NCBI GenBank assembly: GCA_050015075.1
Contig: JBEKCB010000035.1
Span: forward strand, 1 to 53,226
Direction of reading: 5' to 3'
DNA: 53,226 nucleotides
Source: Candidatus Brocadiia bacterium
GTDB lineage: Bacteria; Planctomycetota; Brocadiia; CAIUPP01
Under the pieces are notes generated by a model, which was given only the letters and a program-made list of their open reading frames with translations, searched no databases and had not been told where the DNA came from. A program made the position numbers and the translations under genes. Positions 5,746 through 40,039 of the stretch are shown here, piece by piece. The first letter of the stretch is position 1; every line of letters starts with the position of its first letter.

Positions 5746-6780
5746 TCACCCTCCCAAAACGTCCTCGCGACCCTCGACCGCGACCTCCATGCGGCGCCGT
5801 CCGCTTTCGGAGATGGCGAGGCAGACCTCAATCGTGTGGCGCGCTTCGGAGAGCGGGCACAGCAGTTCGCCTTTCCCTTCCGTCGCGTCGAGGAAGTTGT
5901 TGGCCTCGTGAATAAATGGGCCGTCCGTTTGCCCCTTGGAATCCGGCTTGTCCTTAAGGCCCTCGGTCCAGGTCCACCGGCCGTCGCGCAGCGCGACGCC
6001 GACGCGGCCTTCCCAGCCGTCGCAGTGGATGCTGCCCTTCGTCCCGGAGAGAATAAGCTGGTCCGTGCGCTGCGCCTGCCACGCGACGACATGGACCGTG
6101 CCCACCGCAGGACTGTTCCGGAAGCGCAGCAGGCAGGCGAGGGTGTCCTCCGCGTCAGTCCCTTCGATTTGCAGGTGTTCATAAACGGCCATGACGCTCC
6201 GGATCGGCCCCAGGTACCATTGGATCATGTTGATGGCGTGGCTGGAGACGTCGAAGATGGCGCCGCCTCCTTGCTCGCGATGGGCCCAGTAGGTGTCGCG
6301 GTAATCCGGGCGCGCGGTCCGGTGATCGTAACCGACGATGCAGGAGCAGGCCAGCACCTCGCCGATCTTCCCGGCGTCGAGTTCCCGCTTGACGGCCCGC
6401 ATCGCGGGCATGGCGCGCCGGACGTGCGCGACGCCGACGACGCGCCCTTTCTTTTTCGCCAGCCGGTCCAGGTCGTCGCAGCCGTCGAGGGAAAGGGAAA
6501 GCGGCTTCTCGATCAGCACGTGCGCGCCGGCCTCAACGACTCTGTTCGCCCAAGGCACGTGCAGGTCGGCGGGGACGCAGATCACCGCTGCATCGAACTC
6601 CGACAGGATGACCTGGTCGAAGTCCGCATAGACGCCGATGAGCGGATACGCCGCGGCAAGCTGCCGAAGCCGTTCGGGCCGGTTATCGCATAGCGCCACT
6701 TCCGCGCGCCCGGTCTTCAGGAAGCACCGGACATGCCGTTCGCCGATGCTGCCGCCGCCGACGATCAGAATTCGATGCAT
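5746..6780 (-). CDS. Gfo/Idh/MocA family oxidoreductase
   Basis: GGGSIGERH, HVLIEKP, GGGAIFDVSSH. Confidence 0.9.
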   Translation of the reverse strand: MHRILIVGGGSIGERHVRCFLKTGRAEVALCDNRPERLRQLAAAYPLIGVYADFDQVILSEFDAAVICVPADLHVPWANRVVEAGAHVLIEKPLSLSLDGCDDLDRLAKKKGRVVGVAHVRRAMPAMRAVKRELDAGKIGEVLACSCIVGYDHRTARPDYRDTYWAHREQGGGAIFDVSSHAINMIQWYLGPIRSVMAVYEHLQIEGTDAEDTLACLLRFRNSPAVGTVHVVAWQAQRTDQLILSGTKGSIHCDGWEGRVGVALRDGRWTWTEGLKDKPDSKGQTDGPFIHEANNFLDATEGKGELLCPLSEARHTIEVCLAISESGRRRMEVAVEGREDVLGG

Positions 6781-6834
6781 ACGGAGTCTCCGCGTTGGCG
6801 CGGGCCTTTTTGCGATTCAAGCACCTCGGCTTGT

Positions 6835-7899
6835 TCAAGACTTCATTCGAGGTTCGACGATCTTGCCTGTCCGCGCGGACCTGTACGCGGCTTCCATGAC
6901 GATGCAGTTCCACAGGCCGTCCTCGGCGGGCACCGGCGCGGGCCGGCCTTCGAGGATCGCCTGGGAGAACTCCTCGATTTCGCCGCGATAGGTGTTCTTC
7001 GGTTCGAGCGCCATCGGCTGGTAGGCAGCATGGTCCTGCGCCTGCTGTTGCGCGTCATAGCCTTTGCCCGCGCCGAGGATGCACTGGCGCAGGTCACCGC
7101 CCGGTCCCTGTCCGAGGCTGTACCTGCCTTTGACCGAGCCCTGCGAGCCGTAGACCTCGAGGACGAACTCGCTCGCCTCGTCCGGGATGGCGAAGCTCAC
7201 GTCCACCACGCCGGCGGCGCCGTTCTCGAACTCGATCAGCGCGACGCAGGTGTCCTCGACCGGATATCGGTGCACGCGGTTGAACGTGCGCGCGGTGATC
7301 TTCTTCGTGCGGCCGAAGAACATCTCCATCAGGTCCACCACGTGCGAACCCATATCCATCAACGGGCCGCCGCCGCCGAGTTCCGGCGCCTGGCGCCACG
7401 CGCCCGGGATCGGCGGATACCAGCACGTCATCTGTCCGCGCGCCATCACCGGCGTGCCCAGTGCGCCGGAGCGGATCATCTCCTGAATCTTGCGATGATA
7501 GACATTGAACCGCATCATGAACCCGACGCCGAGCAGCACCCGGGCCTTCTTGCAGGCGGCGATCATCTTGAGGATATCGCGGGACTTCAGAGCGAGCGGC
7601 TTCTCGCACAGGACGTGTCTGCCCGCCCTGGCCGCGGCGATGACGTGTCTCTTGTGCAGGTAGTTCGGCGTCGCGACGTAGACCGCCTGGACGCCGGCCG
7701 TGCGCAGCAATTCCCTCTCGGTCGCGCAGCACTTCGCGCCGAACTTCGTCGCCGCGTCCTGCGCGCCGGCCTGGTCCGCGTCCATCAGCGTCACCAACCG
7801 GGCGTTGGAAGCGGCCATGATTCCTTCCGGAATCGTTCGTCGTTTCGCGATCCCGCACGCGCCCAGGACACCCCAGCCGATCTTTCCCTCCGGCCGCAT
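6835..7899 (-). CDS. Gfo/Idh/MocA family oxidoreductase
   Basis: GVLGACGIA, YVATPNYLH, HVLCEKP, GGGPLMDMGSH; ATG at 7899 after GAGGA. Confidence 0.9.
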   Translation of the reverse strand: MRPEGKIGWGVLGACGIAKRRTIPEGIMAASNARLVTLMDADQAGAQDAATKFGAKCCATERELLRTAGVQAVYVATPNYLHKRHVIAAARAGRHVLCEKPLALKSRDILKMIAACKKARVLLGVGFMMRFNVYHRKIQEMIRSGALGTPVMARGQMTCWYPPIPGAWRQAPELGGGGPLMDMGSHVVDLMEMFFGRTKKITARTFNRVHRYPVEDTCVALIEFENGAAGVVDVSFAIPDEASEFVLEVYGSQGSVKGRYSLGQGPGGDLRQCILGAGKGYDAQQQAQDHAAYQPMALEPKNTYRGEIEEFSQAILEGRPAPVPAEDGLWNCIVMEAAYRSARTGKIVEPRMKS

Positions 7900-7960
7900 G
7901 GGTTCCTCGCTTGGAAAGGACAACAGGTTCCGGAACTTTTCGGCGGACTGAAATTTCCTT

Positions 7961-8041
7961 CGGCTGGATATATACAGCCGGGGAGCCGGCGCGTCAAGCC
8001 TCCGAGCGCTTGACGGCGAAGGTTGCGCAAGGGTATGTAAT
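7961..8041. promoter_or_regulatory. Back-to-back divergent sigma70-type promoters with a palindromic operator candidate
   Basis: Minus strand: TTGACG (7997-7992), 17 nt, TATATA (7974-7969). Plus strand: TTGACG (8010-8015), 18 nt, TATGTA. Inverted repeat CGGCTG-N8-CAGCCG (7961-7980) covers the minus-strand -10. Confidence 0.6.
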
Positions 8042-8118
8042 ACGCGGCTGCCGCGGTTCGGCGCCGCCGCTTTGCGCGAATTCGCGCTGTCCTCGAAGCC
8101 TTTTCAGGAGGCCCGGCG

Positions 8119-9429
8119 ATGACCGAGAGCCTGGCGATTGACGGTGGAAAGAAGACCATCCACGCGCCGCTTCCGGGCTGGCCGCATTACACGGAAGAGG
8201 CCATCCGGCGCGCGACGGTCCCGCTGCGGGAGAATGCGCCGAACTACTGGACCAACCGCAAAGGCAAGCTCAAGGGCGGCAAGGTCGGCTCGCATGGGAT
8301 GGAGTATGAAGAGAAGTTCGCCGCATGGGAAGGGACCCGGTTCGCCGTCTCTTCCGCCACCGGCACCGCGGCGCTGCACATCGCCCTCGGCGGCTTCCGC
8401 GTCGGGCCGGGCGACGAAGTCATCGTCCCGAGCTACACCTTCATCGCCTCGAGCATGTGCGTCCTCCAGGCCGGCGCCATCCCGGTCTTCGCCGACGTCA
8501 AGCCCGACGATCACTGCATTGATCCGAAGGCCATTGTGAAGTGCCTCACTCGGCGCACCAAGGCGATCATCCCCGTTCATCTCTATGGCTGCGTGTGCGA
8601 CATGGACGAGATCATGGCCATCGCCCGGAAGCACAAACTGATCGTGATCGAGGACTGCGCCGAGGCGCACGGCGGCGCGTACAAGGGCAGGAAGGTCGGC
8701 ACCATCGGCCACGCCGGCGCCTTCAGCTTCTGCCAGAGCAAGCACTGGACGACCGGCGGCGAGGGCGGCATGACGGTCACCGATGATGAGGACGCCGCCT
8801 GGATCATGCGCAGCTTCCGCGACCACGGCTATGATGTCGCCAAGCGCATGAGCCTGCTGGAACTCGAACGGCATTTGCCGTACATCCATCGCCGTCTCGG
8901 CTGGAACTACCGCATGACGGAGATGCAGAGCTGCCTGGGGATCTACGAGCTGGGCCGGTTCGAGAAGTGGAACAAGCCGCGCCGCCAGCGCAACCATCGC
9001 ATCCTGGCCGGCGAACTCGCCGGCTATCCCGGCATCAGGAACGTCGAGTACGAGAACAGGGATAAGGAGTGCTGCTTCTTCGTGTTCCCGATCATCCTCG
9101 ACATGAAGAAACTCACGTGCGACCTCGACCGGTTCGTCAAGGCCCTCGGCGCCGAAGGCGTGCCCTGCGGGCCGGTTTTCTGGCCGCAGAGCTACAAGGA
9201 AGACGTCTTCCGCGAAAACATCGGCCAGGGCGAAGCCAACTTCCCGTTCCACAGCAAGGAATATACCGACCCGAAGCAGGCGGCCAGGTACAAGACCCTG
9301 TCGCTCCCGAACGCGGTCGAGTATCAGAAGAATACGTTCATCACGCTGTGCCACCCGAGGCTCGAGCCGAAGCACATGAAGCTTATCGCCCGGGGCATCA
9401 AGAAGGTGCTCGACGCCTGCGCGAAATGA
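8119..9429 (+). CDS. DegT/DnrJ/EryC1/StrS family PLP aminotransferase
   Basis: TGTAALH, GDEVIVPSYTF, IEDCAEAHG, FSFCQSK, TGGEGG, GWNYRM; AGGAGG RBS. Confidence 0.92.
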   Translation: MTESLAIDGGKKTIHAPLPGWPHYTEEAIRRATVPLRENAPNYWTNRKGKLKGGKVGSHGMEYEEKFAAWEGTRFAVSSATGTAALHIALGGFRVGPGDEVIVPSYTFIASSMCVLQAGAIPVFADVKPDDHCIDPKAIVKCLTRRTKAIIPVHLYGCVCDMDEIMAIARKHKLIVIEDCAEAHGGAYKGRKVGTIGHAGAFSFCQSKHWTTGGEGGMTVTDDEDAAWIMRSFRDHGYDVAKRMSLLELERHLPYIHRRLGWNYRMTEMQSCLGIYELGRFEKWNKPRRQRNHRILAGELAGYPGIRNVEYENRDKECCFFVFPIILDMKKLTCDLDRFVKALGAEGVPCGPVFWPQSYKEDVFRENIGQGEANFPFHSKEYTDPKQAARYKTLSLPNAVEYQKNTFITLCHPRLEPKHMKLIARGIKKVLDACAK

Positions 9430-35700: not shown

Positions 35701-36828
35701 TCAGTGTGGGCGGCGAGCCGGCGGCGTCTTGCCGTCGAACGCGCGAATGTAGCAGATGCAGTTCAGGAAGAGCGCGCGCCCCGCAGCGGTCATCTGCGAG
35801 GGTGGCGACGAGTAGCCCCACTGCAGGAAGTTCGCATCTCGTCCGATGCCCACGTCGCCGAACTGCTTGCCGGTATTGTACCCTTGCGCCAGCACTTCGG
35901 TGTCGGGCGAATTGGCGTAACCGCTGCCGCGGGACAACACGCTGCCAAAAGTCTTCCCGCTGTCCTGCACGCGCCAGACTTTTATCTGCTCAGGCAGGTC
36001 CCTGCCGGCCGGCGAGCGGCGGTAGTTTTTCGGGGTCGGCCACATCTCGAAGACCGGCTGAACGGGGAAGGGCTTCTGGAACACCTCATGATTGATCGGC
36101 TCAAACTGAGCCGCGTCGCTCATGCAGTTTCACTCATACCCCGTCTTGAGTCGAAGCTGGCTGCAGATCATCGCCCCGGCCACGCCAACGGTCACGGTCG
36201 CGCGGGCATAGTTTTGCGGCAGCTTCGGTCGCGGGAAGCTGAAGGCGTCCTTGCCGCCGCCGTCATAATCCAGGATCGCCACGTCGAACCCGTTGGCGCT
36301 CTTGTCGCTGAAAGTCGCCAGGTCGCCGGTCTCGACTTGCGTAAAATACTTGCCCAGGAAGGCGACGAAATCCTTCTCGCGATCCGAGTCGGGATGCCCG
36401 GCATAGAGGATGCGCATGGGGATCTTCGCAAGCGGCGCCGGTTGCCCCTGCTTCGGCTCCGGACGAACCGGCTCGGGCGGCAACTGCTGCGGGTTCGCGC
36501 CCTGATCCTCTATCCTTTTCATACCTGCCGGCCGCAAGTCCACCTCAGAAACTATCCCATCAGAGAGGCAAATCTCGGCGCGCTCATAGATCAGAGTCTC
36601 ACGATGCGCCGACCCGACCTGTCCCTGCGGCGGCCCAAGAAGTTCGATTACCTTTTCCCTCGGGTCTCCAGGCTTGATCTCCGGCGCGGTAGTAGTTGCC
36701 GTCGGACTGTTTGTCGCCGCAGGAGAGCCGCCAATGGCCTGCGCCGAGGCCGCTCCGGCCCCGAGCAACGCCATCGCCGTAACGCTCGCCGTCACGACGA
36801 TCAGCCGCCTGCCGCAGGTCCGCAACAT
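35701..36828 (-). CDS. Secreted hypothetical protein, candidate selenoprotein with in-frame UGA at 36132-36130 (otherwise two ORFs: 36130-36828 and 35701-36123)
   Basis: The two ORFs share a frame and are separated only by TGA-AAC-TGC, giving GYE-U-N-C-M. N-terminal signal peptide; SECIS-like hairpin directly downstream of the UGA. Confidence 0.65.
36088..36123 (-). promoter_or_regulatory. Candidate bacterial SECIS element
   Basis: ATGA-GCGACG-CGGCTCA-GTT-TGAGCCG-ATCAA-TCAT: 7-bp upper stem, apical loop starting GU, 23 nt after the UGA. Confidence 0.55.
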
Positions 36829-37132: not shown

Positions 37133-40039
37133 ATGACGGTCGCCGAGTTCATCTCTATCTGGCAGAAAGCCGACCTGACTGAGCGTTCCGGTTGCCAGCA
37201 GCATTTCTGCGGCCTCTGCCGACTCCTCGGCCACCCGGAGCCGGCCGAAATGGACCCGAAGGGCGAGTTTTTCACCTTCGAGCGCGGGGCGGAGAAGAAC
37301 ACCGGCGGCGACGGTTTTGCCGATGTCTGGAAGAAGGGATGTTTCGGCTGGGAGTACAAGGGCAGGCACAAGAACCTCGACGCCGCGTACCAGCAGCTTC
37401 TGACCTACCGCGAGGACCTGGAAAACCCGCCTCTCCTCGTCGTCTGCGACATGGAGCGGATCGTCATCCGCACGAACTTCACCAACACCCCCATGGTGAC
37501 GCACGAGATTGCGCTGGCCGACCTCTCCAAACCCGAGAGCCTGGCACTGCTGCGCAACGTCTTTTTCGAGCCGGAAAAGCTCAAGCCGGGCGTCACGATC
37601 CAGTCCATCACCACCGAGGCGGCGCGGCGCCTGGGGGAGATTGCCCAGTCCATGCGCAAGCGCGGCCTGCCGGCGCTCGACGTGGCCCACTTCCTGGACC
37701 GGATGATTTTCTGCCTCTTCGCCGAAGACGTGGGATTGTTGCCGAAGGGCCTTTTCAGCAAAGTCCTGAAAAACTCCGAGGGCGATCCGGCGCGCTTCCG
37801 CAAGACCGTCGCGCAACTTTTCGAGGCGATGGCCGATGGCGGTCTTTTCGGGGCCGACAAGATTCTTCACTTTAACGGCAACCTCTTCGCCGACGCCACC
37901 GTGCTCGACATGGAAGCCGAAGAGATCGAGCGGATCGCGGAGATTTCCACCCTCGACTGGAGCGCCGTGGACCCCAGCATCTTCGGCACCCTGTTCGAAC
38001 GCGGACTGGACCCGGACAAACGCTCGCAATTGGGCGCACATTACACCAGCCGAGAGGACATCGAAGTCCTCGTCGAGCCGGTCGTCATGCAGCCCCTGCG
38101 CCGGGAGTGGCAGGAGATTCGGCAGACCTGCGACAACCTCCTGTCCACCGGCAAGAAGGACCCGGCGCCTGAGGATGCCGGGAAGAAGCTCTCGCCGGCG
38201 GTTCGCAGCAAGGCCGCCAAGCAGGCCAAGGCGATGATCGGGCAGTTTCTCCACATGAGCCTGCCTTCCCTCAAGGTGCTCGACCCCGCCTGCGGATCGG
38301 GCAATTTTCTCTACGTCACCCTACAGAAGCTCAAGGACCTGGAAAAGGAAGTCGTCCTCTACGGCGCGCGCAACGGCATGGGCGGGTTCCTGCCGATGGT
38401 CGGGCCGTGGCAGCTCTACGGCATTGAGATCAACCCCTACGCCTATGAGCTGGCACAGATGACCGTCTGGATCGGCTACCTGCAATGGGTCCGCGACAAC
38501 GGCCTCGGCAACGTCGGCGAACCCGTCCTTCGCAAGCTCGACAACTTCAAGTGCATGGACGCCATCATTGACCTGCGCGACCCGAACACTCCGAAGGAGC
38601 CGGAGTGGCCGAAAGTGGATTACATCATCGGAAATCCACCGTTCTTGGGCGGGAAGATGCTGCGCCGGGAACTGGGCGACGAGTACGTTGACCGCATGTT
38701 GGCGCTCTGGCGGGAACGAGTGCCCGCCGAGGCGGACCTGTGCTGCTACTGGTTTGAGAAGGCGCGGAGCCAGATCGAAAAGGGCCTGTGCAAACGCGCC
38801 GGCCTTCTCTCGACGCAGGGCATCCGCGGCGGCGCAAACCGGGAAGTGCTCAAACGCATCCAGATGACCGGCGGCATTTTCTTCGCCGAGAGCGACCGCG
38901 CGTGGGTCCTGGACGGGGCGAATGTTCACATCTCCATGATCGGGTTCGACTCAGGCGACGAAAAGGTACGGACGCTTGATAGCCTGAAGGTGACCACTAT
39001 CAACCCGAACCTCTCTGCACAAGCGGACATCAGCCTGGCAAAACGTCAGGCTGCAAATCTCGATATCGGATTCATGGGCGACACCAAAGTAGGCCCCTTC
39101 GAAATCGCGGAGGAAAAAGCTCTCGCAATGCTTTCGTCGCCAAACCCGCGCGCAAGCCCCAACAGCGATGTTGTGCGACCTTGGGTGAATGGCTTGGACG
39201 TTACGCGGCGACCTCAGAACATCTGGATCGTGGACTTTCCGCCCACTACCACCGAGGACGACGCCGCGTTTTATGAGGCTCCTTATGAATACGTAAAAAC
39301 GAATGTGAAGCCGATGCGGGCGACCGCACGCAGCGGAGACCGTACCGGGGTATCATGGTGGATTCACCAGCGACCGCGCCCTGACATGCGCCACGCTATA
39401 GAGAAACTCCCGCGATTCCTGTGCACTGCCCGAGTTTCCAAACACAGGCTGTTCGTGTGGCTCGAACCCTTTTCGCTACCAGACTGCCAGGTCATCGTCT
39501 TCGCCCGTTCCGACGACTACTTCTTCGGCGTCCTGCACTCGCGGCTGCAGGAGGTGTGGGCGCTGAAATTGGGAACGCGGCTTGAGACGCGGCCCCGCTA
39601 CACGCCGACCACCTGCTTCGAGACCTTCCCGCTGCCGAAGCCCACACCGGACCAGGAGAAGGCCATCGCCGATGCGGCGAAGGAACTGAACGCGCTCCGC
39701 AACAACTGGCTCAATCCGGCTGACTGGATGAAGGAGGAGATTCTGGAATTCCCAGGCTCGGTCAACGGTCCCTGGGCGCGATATGTGGTGAACCCGAACG
39801 ACAAGGGCATCGGCACCGTGCGCTACTGCCGGCTGGTTCCGAAGGATGAAGCCAACGCGAAGCTCCTCGCCAAGCGCACGCTGACGAACCTCTACAACAC
39901 CCGCCCCGACTGGCTCAAGCTGGCGCACCAGAAGCTCGACGAGGCCGTCTTCGCCGCCTACGGCTGGAGTCTCACTCTGACCGACGAACAGCTTCTGGAA
40001 TCTCTCCTCGCCCTCAATCAGCAGCGTGCGGGGCAATAA
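37133..40039 (+). CDS. MmeI-like type IIL/IIG restriction-modification enzyme (fused endonuclease, m6A methyltransferase and TRD)
   Basis: GFADVWKKGCFGWEYK (PD-ExK-like), IFGTLFE, LGAHYT, LDPACGSGNFL, GNPPF, PRYTPTTCFETFP, AHQKLDEAVFAAYGW. Confidence 0.9.
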   Translation: MTVAEFISIWQKADLTERSGCQQHFCGLCRLLGHPEPAEMDPKGEFFTFERGAEKNTGGDGFADVWKKGCFGWEYKGRHKNLDAAYQQLLTYREDLENPPLLVVCDMERIVIRTNFTNTPMVTHEIALADLSKPESLALLRNVFFEPEKLKPGVTIQSITTEAARRLGEIAQSMRKRGLPALDVAHFLDRMIFCLFAEDVGLLPKGLFSKVLKNSEGDPARFRKTVAQLFEAMADGGLFGADKILHFNGNLFADATVLDMEAEEIERIAEISTLDWSAVDPSIFGTLFERGLDPDKRSQLGAHYTSREDIEVLVEPVVMQPLRREWQEIRQTCDNLLSTGKKDPAPEDAGKKLSPAVRSKAAKQAKAMIGQFLHMSLPSLKVLDPACGSGNFLYVTLQKLKDLEKEVVLYGARNGMGGFLPMVGPWQLYGIEINPYAYELAQMTVWIGYLQWVRDNGLGNVGEPVLRKLDNFKCMDAIIDLRDPNTPKEPEWPKVDYIIGNPPFLGGKMLRRELGDEYVDRMLALWRERVPAEADLCCYWFEKARSQIEKGLCKRAGLLSTQGIRGGANREVLKRIQMTGGIFFAESDRAWVLDGANVHISMIGFDSGDEKVRTLDSLKVTTINPNLSAQADISLAKRQAANLDIGFMGDTKVGPFEIAEEKALAMLSSPNPRASPNSDVVRPWVNGLDVTRRPQNIWIVDFPPTTTEDDAAFYEAPYEYVKTNVKPMRATARSGDRTGVSWWIHQRPRPDMRHAIEKLPRFLCTARVSKHRLFVWLEPFSLPDCQVIVFARSDDYFFGVLHSRLQEVWALKLGTRLETRPRYTPTTCFETFPLPKPTPDQEKAIADAAKELNALRNNWLNPADWMKEEILEFPGSVNGPWARYVVNPNDKGIGTVRYCRLVPKDEANAKLLAKRTLTNLYNTRPDWLKLAHQKLDEAVFAAYGWSLTLTDEQLLESLLALNQQRAGQ

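Follow-up and report, generated by a model that had tools for sequence, protein, structure and literature searches.

Does a TGA codon lying between two adjacent open reading frames (ORFs) end one gene, or does it encode selenocysteine (Sec) inside a longer one? The question is raised by the minus strand of contig JBEKCB010000035.1 of a Candidatus Brocadiia bacterium (phylum Planctomycetota; assembly GCA_050015075.1), of which we analyzed positions 1 to 53,226, a stretch of 53,226 nucleotides referred to here as the window. An ORF of 232 amino acids (36828..36130) carries a terminal TGA at 36132..36130, and a second ORF of 140 amino acids (36123..35701) follows in the same frame. Only TGA AAC TGC lies between the two, and an ATG comes next; this spacing, given in a preliminary description of the DNA, is seen both in the sequence and in the list of ORFs. 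When the TGA is read through, conceptual translation yields one product of 375 residues, ...LRLKTGYE-U-N-C-MSDAAQFEP..., with the junction peptide ...TGYE-U-NCMSDAAQFEPINHEVFQK, and the frame closes at a second TGA (35703..35701). On the evidence assembled below, the UGA at 36132..36130 very probably encodes Sec, and 36828..35701 is most likely a single gene for an exported selenoprotein of 375 residues, with a U-x-C centre, possibly redox-active, carried on a domain that resembles class I glutamine amidotransferases (GATase1). The features on which this answer turns are as follows.

35701..36828, minus strand: the whole putative selenoprotein gene, 375 codons (36828..35704) plus the terminal TGA stop, from the frame, the translation, the orthologue in a congener and an AlphaFold2 (AF2) model
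35701..36828, minus strand: layout of the predicted product, namely signal peptide, poorly modelled N-terminal region and GATase1-like U-x-C domain
36130..36132, minus strand: in-frame UGA, read as Sec (U233) from the aligned TGA in relatives and Cys in homologues
36124..36126, minus strand: TGC codon for Cys235, the U-x-C partner, present as Cys in all 32 Sec-form loci with TGC and TGT as synonymous codons

Relatives were sought by a six-frame search that reads through stop codons, run on 401 genomes sampled from the phylum. The family was matched in 32 of them, and nearly all matches that span the junction contained a single TGA. The genome of the window has three paralogues (the window copy, C7:144748-146085 and C54:1737-2426) and a congener has two family loci, each with exactly one TGA; the congener orthologue of the window gene is 86% identical over residues 1-374 and keeps its TGA. 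When 34 genome loci were cut out and aligned, at identities of 24 to 86% (the lowest, 24%, to the query), TGA occupied one column in 32 of them, within the motif U-x-C-[L/M]. At this column L041 reads G-P-P-T-A-G, neither U nor C, and L053 leaves the column uncovered. The Cys of the motif is encoded two positions 3' of the UGA by either TGC or TGT, a synonymous exchange (alignment A3), and most of the aligned Sec forms read W-L-U-L-C-L, with a Leu codon (CTN) and no start codon past the TGA. Since the Cys codon varies synonymously and most members offer no start codon, translation would be expected to run on past the UGA. The same arrangement recurs in three named metagenome-assembled genome (MAG) loci, from a Pirellulales, a Phycisphaerales and an unclassified member of the Planctomycetota, while L057, recorded as a 'Candidatus Brocadiia' MAG, appears to be the congener locus L003, already counted. 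Throughout the 54 Sec-form loci the stop is always TGA and never TAA or TAG, and no homologue terminates at the junction with TAA or TAG.

The Sec forms are the minority of a much larger set of proteins. An exhaustive HMMER search returned 1284 representative proteins or clusters at an E value of ≤1e-3, and among the 78 listed database proteins that span the junction, 73 have Cys at the Sec column, as C-x-C-[L/M]; in the remaining five (four Ser, one Arg) both cysteines are gone. A separate set of 80 metagenome loci, fetched with a profile of the Cys form, has Cys at this position in 56, TGA in 19, Ser in 2, Ala in 2 and Glu in 1. As judged from these alignments, the exchange of Sec and Cys at one column is a classical Sec/Cys pair. 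The U-x-C family is thus large, consists mostly of C-x-C forms and has no Pfam or NCBIfam model; ESM Atlas clusters for a natural Cys-form relative bear only the name 'hypothetical protein' or DsbD_N names. The preliminary description had postulated one 375-residue read-through protein with homologues running across the junction, and this is what the comparison returned: UGA at the column in 32 of 34 genome loci and Cys in 73 of 78 database proteins.

A nonsense mutation, a sequencing error (pseudogene) or a genome-wide reassignment of TGA to Trp or Gly has nothing in its favour beyond the in-frame TGA itself and is the least credible account of the locus, given that dozens of independent assemblies share the TGA at this column, that nine contigs carry the N-part ORF of the window, that selA, selB and selD have no in-frame stops and the selenoprotein gene itself ends at TGA, and that the aligned residue is Cys, not Trp or Gly.

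Two translationally coupled genes, with termination at the TGA, a restart at the ATG 6 nt further on and an incidental hairpin, would agree with what the databases hold. A word-indexed protein search gave 110 hits, all of them split halves, either N-parts ending in ...KTGYE or C-parts beginning with MSDAAQ or MGDAAH, and an ATG does follow U-N-C in the clade of the window. However, in most homologues a Leu codon (CTN), and no start codon, comes after U-x-C, the Cys forms are continuous proteins, the junction falls in the middle of a domain, and TAA or TAG never replaces TGA in the 54 Sec-form loci. The lack of a clear Shine-Dalgarno sequence before the second ORF, remarked on in the preliminary description, is a moot point, because most homologues carry Leu and not Met after U-x-C. 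We therefore attribute the 110 split halves to gene callers that cut the U-x-C family at the UGA, and consider a pair of coupled genes very improbable.

If the UGA encodes Sec, a bacterial Sec insertion sequence (SECIS) is expected 3' of it. The following elements lie there.

36097..36113, minus strand: upper stem-loop of the candidate SECIS, CGGCUCA-GUU-UGAGCCG, with the stem at 36113..36107 and 36103..36097 and the loop at 36106..36104
36079..36131, minus strand: extended predicted SECIS, with the lower stem CAUGA/UCAUG and flanks, centroid fold of -20.3 kcal/mol

The apical loop, GUU with G first, begins 23 nt 3' of the UGA, just as the preliminary description had it. The perfect 7-bp stem has a predicted energy of -9.8 kcal/mol and the surrounding 60 nt one of -20.5 kcal/mol (z = -2.39); 2 of 200 dinucleotide shuffles fold equally well. 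The published bacterial SECIS (bSECIS) model calls for a loop of 3-9 nt, an upper stem of at least 4 bp, G in one of the first two loop positions, a distance of 16-37 nt from the UGA and a minimum free energy of ≤-7.5 kcal/mol (PMC13188914). The window hairpin agrees with it in every respect (7 bp, GUU, spacing of 23 and a best window of -19.7 kcal/mol). So do the hairpins of 49 of the 54 Sec-form genes, as against 2 of the 56 Cys-form genes, and among the 49 Sec forms that pass, 41 have a spacing of 23-24 nt. A simple finder of perfect-stem hairpins detected 34 of 50; it under-counted bulged SECIS stems, and the bSECIS model was used instead. Rfam, at its gathering thresholds, had no match in the window.

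Base pairing has been conserved while the sequence changed. In the gapless covariation alignment A3 (27 Sec forms, 8-bp helix), 72% of cells are paired, compared with 57% after shuffling, a value that none of 500 shuffles brought up to the observed one, and with 27-48% when the partner is slid; both sides change in six of the eight pairs. The compensation is visible in the protein, where A-H-G-M-R (GCGCA/UGCGC) becomes A-Y-G-L-R (GCGUA/UACGC). In the clade of the window (A5, eight sequences), 96.9% of cells are paired versus 34-41% after sliding, and the changes are a single compensatory switch from U-A to C-G and three replacements of G-C by G-U; the encoded residues shift meanwhile from A-Q-F-E-P to A-H-V-G-S or A-H-G-E-S. 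Because the arrangement recurs in homologues, the hairpin is to be regarded, on the alignments, as more than a product of chance.

The genome also has the means to decode such a signal. One contig (C13) holds selD (364.8 bits), selA (448.3 bits), selB (340.5 bits) and a tRNA-Sec, the product of selC, which was found by aragorn and scores 60.9 bits against Rfam; all four scores exceed the curated cut-offs, so that every component named in the preliminary description is at hand. Across the phylum, SelA is present in all 31 of the other genomes that bear the family, versus 290 of the 401 in the sample. In two MAGs the selenoprotein gene is embedded in a Sec-machinery locus: selB and selA lie directly downstream of the Sec-form gene in a Pirellulales MAG (L058:4699-7262), and selB does so in a Phycisphaerales MAG (L059:4759-6678). 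No formate dehydrogenase alpha subunit in the genome of the window scored above the cut-off, and none had an in-frame stop. Since no Sec-type formate dehydrogenase was found in this genome, other selenoproteins may maintain the Sec trait in this lineage.

Two observations were made around the machinery genes. In the selD product (G000:C13:3410-5035, locus L149; G000 is the genome of the window), which has 542 amino acids and no in-frame stop, the AIRS domains are joined to a C-terminal carboxymuconolactone-decarboxylase/AhpD-like domain (PF02627). Five paralogous lipoprotein-like ORFs, 42-63% identical (loci L149 to L154), make up what looks like another candidate family of selenoproteins:

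G000:C13:5120-5872, 6285-7088, 7186-7965 and 8060-8824, plus strand: four U-x-G-P-C candidate ORFs, each with an in-frame TGA
G000:C3:112633-113385, plus strand: fifth U-x-G-P-C candidate ORF, with an in-frame TGA

Each has one TGA, in the context ...DFGFS-U-x-G-P-C-YSV..., and then about 38 codons more. The four on C13 stand in tandem, with selD on one side and tRNA-Sec on the other. The congener has three copies with one TGA each, a genome of the same family has one copy with two TGA codons, and a further 300 genomes of the phylum sample yielded none. Pfam scans of two copies gave no match.

Several points count against the assignment of Sec. All support for the incorporation of selenium is comparative. 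Five of the 54 Sec forms fail a strict coding of the bSECIS model, having a 3-bp upper stem followed by a bulge. Five of the eight pairs are invariant in A5, and little covariation comes from the clade of the window itself. Moreover, the pairing, shuffle and Sec-versus-Cys figures are descriptive and should not be taken as probabilities, since they come from related sequences and their significance is overstated. The SECIS that the preliminary description had called for is nonetheless borne out by the 49 Sec forms and only 2 Cys forms that fit the bSECIS model and by the compensatory changes within it.

What kind of protein does the read-through frame encode? Its parts are these.

36739..36828, minus strand: signal-peptide-like N-terminus, MLRTCGRRLIVVTASVTAMALLGAGAASA followed by QA, read from the translation as a basic n-region, a hydrophobic core and A-x-A
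36430..36738, minus strand: N-terminal region, about residues 31-133, with a Pro/Gln-rich linker and a low-confidence model (predicted local distance difference test score, pLDDT, of 30-60)
35734..36429, minus strand: class I glutamine-amidotransferase-like domain, about residues 134-365, with pLDDT > 90; it holds U233, C235, H247, E311, R330, W337 and G338

By reading of the sequence, the N-terminus resembles a Sec-type signal peptide that ends in A-S-A, and the protein is predicted from it to be exported. The fold was recognized in the full-length paralogue, whose AF2 model has a mean pLDDT of 92: residues 67-297 fold like a class I glutamine amidotransferase, with Z scores of 10-12.3 to ThuA-like and GATase1 chains (ThuA-like 4jqs, 12.3, and 1t0b, 11.8; HisH and GuaA glutaminase, 11.9 each; 3rht, 11.6) and Foldseek E values of 6e-5 to 3e-3 at a probability of 1.00. 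In the AF2 model of the window protein, pLDDT exceeds 90 over about residues 130-365, for which reason the GATase1-like domain is modelled as complete, and the UGA sits in the middle of this one compact domain. Nearly invariant columns of the family are H247, P253, E311, G316, R330, W337, G338, P343 and N356.

Profile methods do not reach the domain. A Pfam scan of the window protein gave nothing usable, with no PF00117 at an E value of ≤1 and no ThuA hit; PF00117 had no hit at ≤0.01 in 35 relatives, nor had ThuA. NCBIfam returned zero families for the window protein at ≤1 and left the core domain of the 35 relatives unmatched, and a profile search of the PDB sequences had DsbD-alpha as its sole match, located in the C-terminal extension of Cys forms and outside the core domain. 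A sub-threshold Pfam match to a BamE-like N-terminal domain (residues 50-81, E = 0.24) was rejected, as AF2 gave no confirmation (pLDDT < 50). The C7 paralogue begins with a prepilin-like helix that gives weak GspG/ComGC hits.

The resemblance to glutamine amidotransferases appears to lie in the fold and not in the catalytic residues. With GATase1-fold proteins (the ThuA-like 4jqs, 1t0b and 4e5v, and 3rht of Planctomyces limnophilus) the domain shares the fold over about 230 residues, whereas sequence identity is 8-15% (11% for 4jqs). In the models, the strand-helix 'nucleophile elbow' would read T-V-G-V-A-G-G, with no Cys, and U233 would open the next strand; the U/C-x-C pair would accordingly lie about 17 residues after the elbow. 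No Cys occurs at the strand-helix junction, residues 214/215 of the window protein and 145/146 of the paralogue, as placed by secondary-structure order and not by residue-level superposition. The classical GATase nucleophile therefore appears to be absent. GATases carry the motif H-P-E at a position where the U-x-C family has W-G-[FY].

The window copy lacks the C-terminal helical domain of about 140 residues that most relatives have, and ends in ...FDGKTPPARRPH. It could be a decaying, truncated and possibly non-functional paralogue in a family whose other members are real selenoproteins; that it stops where relatives run about 140 residues further, and that its residues 24-112 have pLDDT < 50, would fit such an account. 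The congener, however, has the same short architecture at 86% identity with the TGA kept, there is another pair of short paralogues (G000:C54 and G001:C87), both the GATase1-like domain and the SECIS are intact, and N-part homologues of 73-80% identity are found on other contigs. Decay is consequently improbable, and we regard the window copy as a natural short form, because the congener keeps that architecture at this level of identity.

We next consider what the U-x-C pair may do, for which the Cys forms provide the clues. A C-terminal DsbD_N domain (DsbD-alpha, PF11412) is present in 13 of 35 relatives, with its active-site Cys pair kept and an E value of ~2e-5 to DsbD-alpha in the PDB, and an N-terminal TlpA-like thioredoxin domain is present in 2 of the 35. 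In a scan of neighbouring genes at 30 loci, DUF4369/TlpA-like thioredoxin genes flanked the family gene in at least 10 Cys-form loci (L085, L094, L099, L100, L103, L109, L111, L112, L119 and L123). In these loci DsbD_N occurs either fused or as a separate ORF, and a SusC/SusD pair lies upstream in most of the thioredoxin-flanked Cys-form metagenome loci; in L123, genes resembling EgtB (FGE-sulfatase domain) and EgtD (Methyltransf_33) come after the operon. Because Cys-form relatives are fused to DsbD-alpha or stand beside TlpA-like thioredoxins, U-x-C can be read by analogy as a periplasmic selenol/thiol redox centre, a reading to which we would give an even chance; the associations point to a periplasmic dithiol relay that would feed the C-x-C or U-x-C centre. 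For the exported protein with a redox-like motif of the preliminary description, export is predicted from the signal-peptide-like N-terminus, and the redox character is still inferential, with the Cys-form fusions and neighbours behind it.

The mechanism that we propose would begin with decoding of the UGA as Sec by the SelA, SelB, SelD and tRNA-Sec of the genome itself, insertion being directed by the SECIS hairpin whose loop lies 23 nt downstream. Sec233 and Cys235 would then form the U-x-C centre where a beta-strand of the GATase1-like domain begins. In the periplasm this centre may alternate between selenol/thiol and selenenylsulfide during action on a substrate and, to judge from the architectures of the Cys forms, would be regenerated by partners with a thioredoxin fold (TlpA-like) or of the DsbD-alpha type.

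Some findings do not favour such a redox centre in the window protein. The neighbour scan revealed no redox partners beside the window copy or the other two paralogues in this genome; the neighbours of the three copies encode an MmeI-type enzyme, a short-chain dehydrogenase, a glycosyltransferase, a B12-binding protein, a kinase and others. The window protein itself has no DsbD_N domain. The modelled placement of U233 rests on secondary-structure order and not on residue superposition. In addition, members without either Cys occur (5 of 78 database proteins, 5 of 80 metagenome loci and L041, at G319:C93:4637-5833), with motifs such as S-L-D-L, S-H-T-L, A-A-T-E and G-P-P-T; they retain the rest of the domain, and part of the family therefore seems to work without a Cys/Sec centre.

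The main rival to the redox reading accepts the selenoprotein and assigns U-x-C, with the invariant His, to a metal site (for example, Cu(I), Zn or Ni) that would serve periplasmic metal handling. A nearly invariant His lies 14 residues past Sec, and an invariant Glu and Arg are found in the same domain. TlpA and DsbD/ScsB-type systems are linked to the assembly of copper sites and to copper tolerance. Among known selenoproteins, a family of Cu/Zn efflux transporters has a U-x-C motif, and several others bind metals (Table 1 of PMC13188914). On the other hand, the DsbD-alpha/TlpA-like fusions and thioredoxin neighbours point first to dithiol-disulfide exchange, and no metal-transport genes were among the neighbours scanned. 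We regard a metal site as unlikely, though less so than any of the other alternatives, and retain the redox centre as the working interpretation.

How does the U-x-C family relate to selenoproteins already described? A 2026 review lists 119 selenoprotein families or subfamilies in its Table 1, each tied to a domain model (PMC13188914), and none of them matches by its Pfam or NCBIfam models, entries with only cd or PTHR models being outside the scan. Of the catalogued selenoproteins, the CTP-synthase-related one is alone in having a GATase-type scaffold, as the U-x-C family is; its motif, however, is GxUxG and not U-x-C, and the window protein has no NF004836 hit and is predicted to be exported. 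Other families with a U-x-C or UGC motif (DUF1573/OS_HP2, UGC-TlpA, thioredoxin-like Sec.2 and SO_0444) share the Sec/Cys spacing, and several of these are extracytoplasmic and active in thiol redox or metal binding; their folds differ, and their Pfam/NCBIfam models miss both the window protein and its 35 relatives. DsbD-alpha and TlpA-like thioredoxins are present in or beside the Cys forms, which suggests a shared periplasmic dithiol relay, but the window protein has neither domain and the U-x-C domain is not a thioredoxin fold.

The literature was searched for earlier reports. 'Hypothetical protein GOS_A' was considered as one and set aside, its sequence in the GOS supplement being unrelated; the strings ULCL, UNCM, UMCL and UTCL have zero occurrences in two GOS supplementary files. 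Table S9 of a 2016 paper on Planctomycetes genomes contains a Sec candidate given only as 'hypothetical' (IMG genes 2643311185 and 2643311186), for which Rhodopirellula sallentina has a Cys homologue (PMC4807772); it is a possible member of the U-x-C family. A search of the accessible papers on selenoproteins with UxC, SECIS and Planctomycetota found no description of the family, and one on SusD/TlpA/DsbD_N operons found nothing relevant. The statement in the preliminary description that no classical selenoprotein family fits agrees with the absence of Pfam and NCBIfam hits and of a match in the review table. The U-x-C family is probably an undescribed selenoprotein family. The mechanism of Sec decoding is conventional; what is new is the family and the placing of a U-x-C centre on a GATase1-like scaffold.

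Upstream of the selenoprotein gene, and divergent from it, positions 37133-40039 of the window (plus strand) encode a 968-amino-acid MmeI-type (type IIL) restriction-modification enzyme with all five MmeI domains.

Taken as one proposal, the observations could describe a new class of periplasmic oxidoreductase. A repurposed GATase-like scaffold with a C-x-C/U-x-C active site would be the end-point of a DsbD-alpha/TlpA relay; in Bacteroidota its substrate would arrive via SusC/SusD, and in Planctomycetota it would have been upgraded to Sec, sometimes within a Sec-machinery locus, and together with the lineage-restricted U-x-G-P-C candidate family, expanded beside tRNA-Sec, it would maintain the Sec trait in the lineage of the window genome, in place of formate dehydrogenase. 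We offer this whole only tentatively, and its odds as a single statement are less than even.

Selenoprotein genes are routinely misannotated as two hypothetical genes, and every database hit obtained here is split at the UGA. If the interpretation given here is true, selenoproteins gain a family built on a fold that has no such use elsewhere. The reactive C-x-C/U-x-C centre would then be a functional handle on a large family that is common in SusCD/thioredoxin operons of Bacteroidota, and the finding would bear on what sustains the use of selenocysteine in Planctomycetota.

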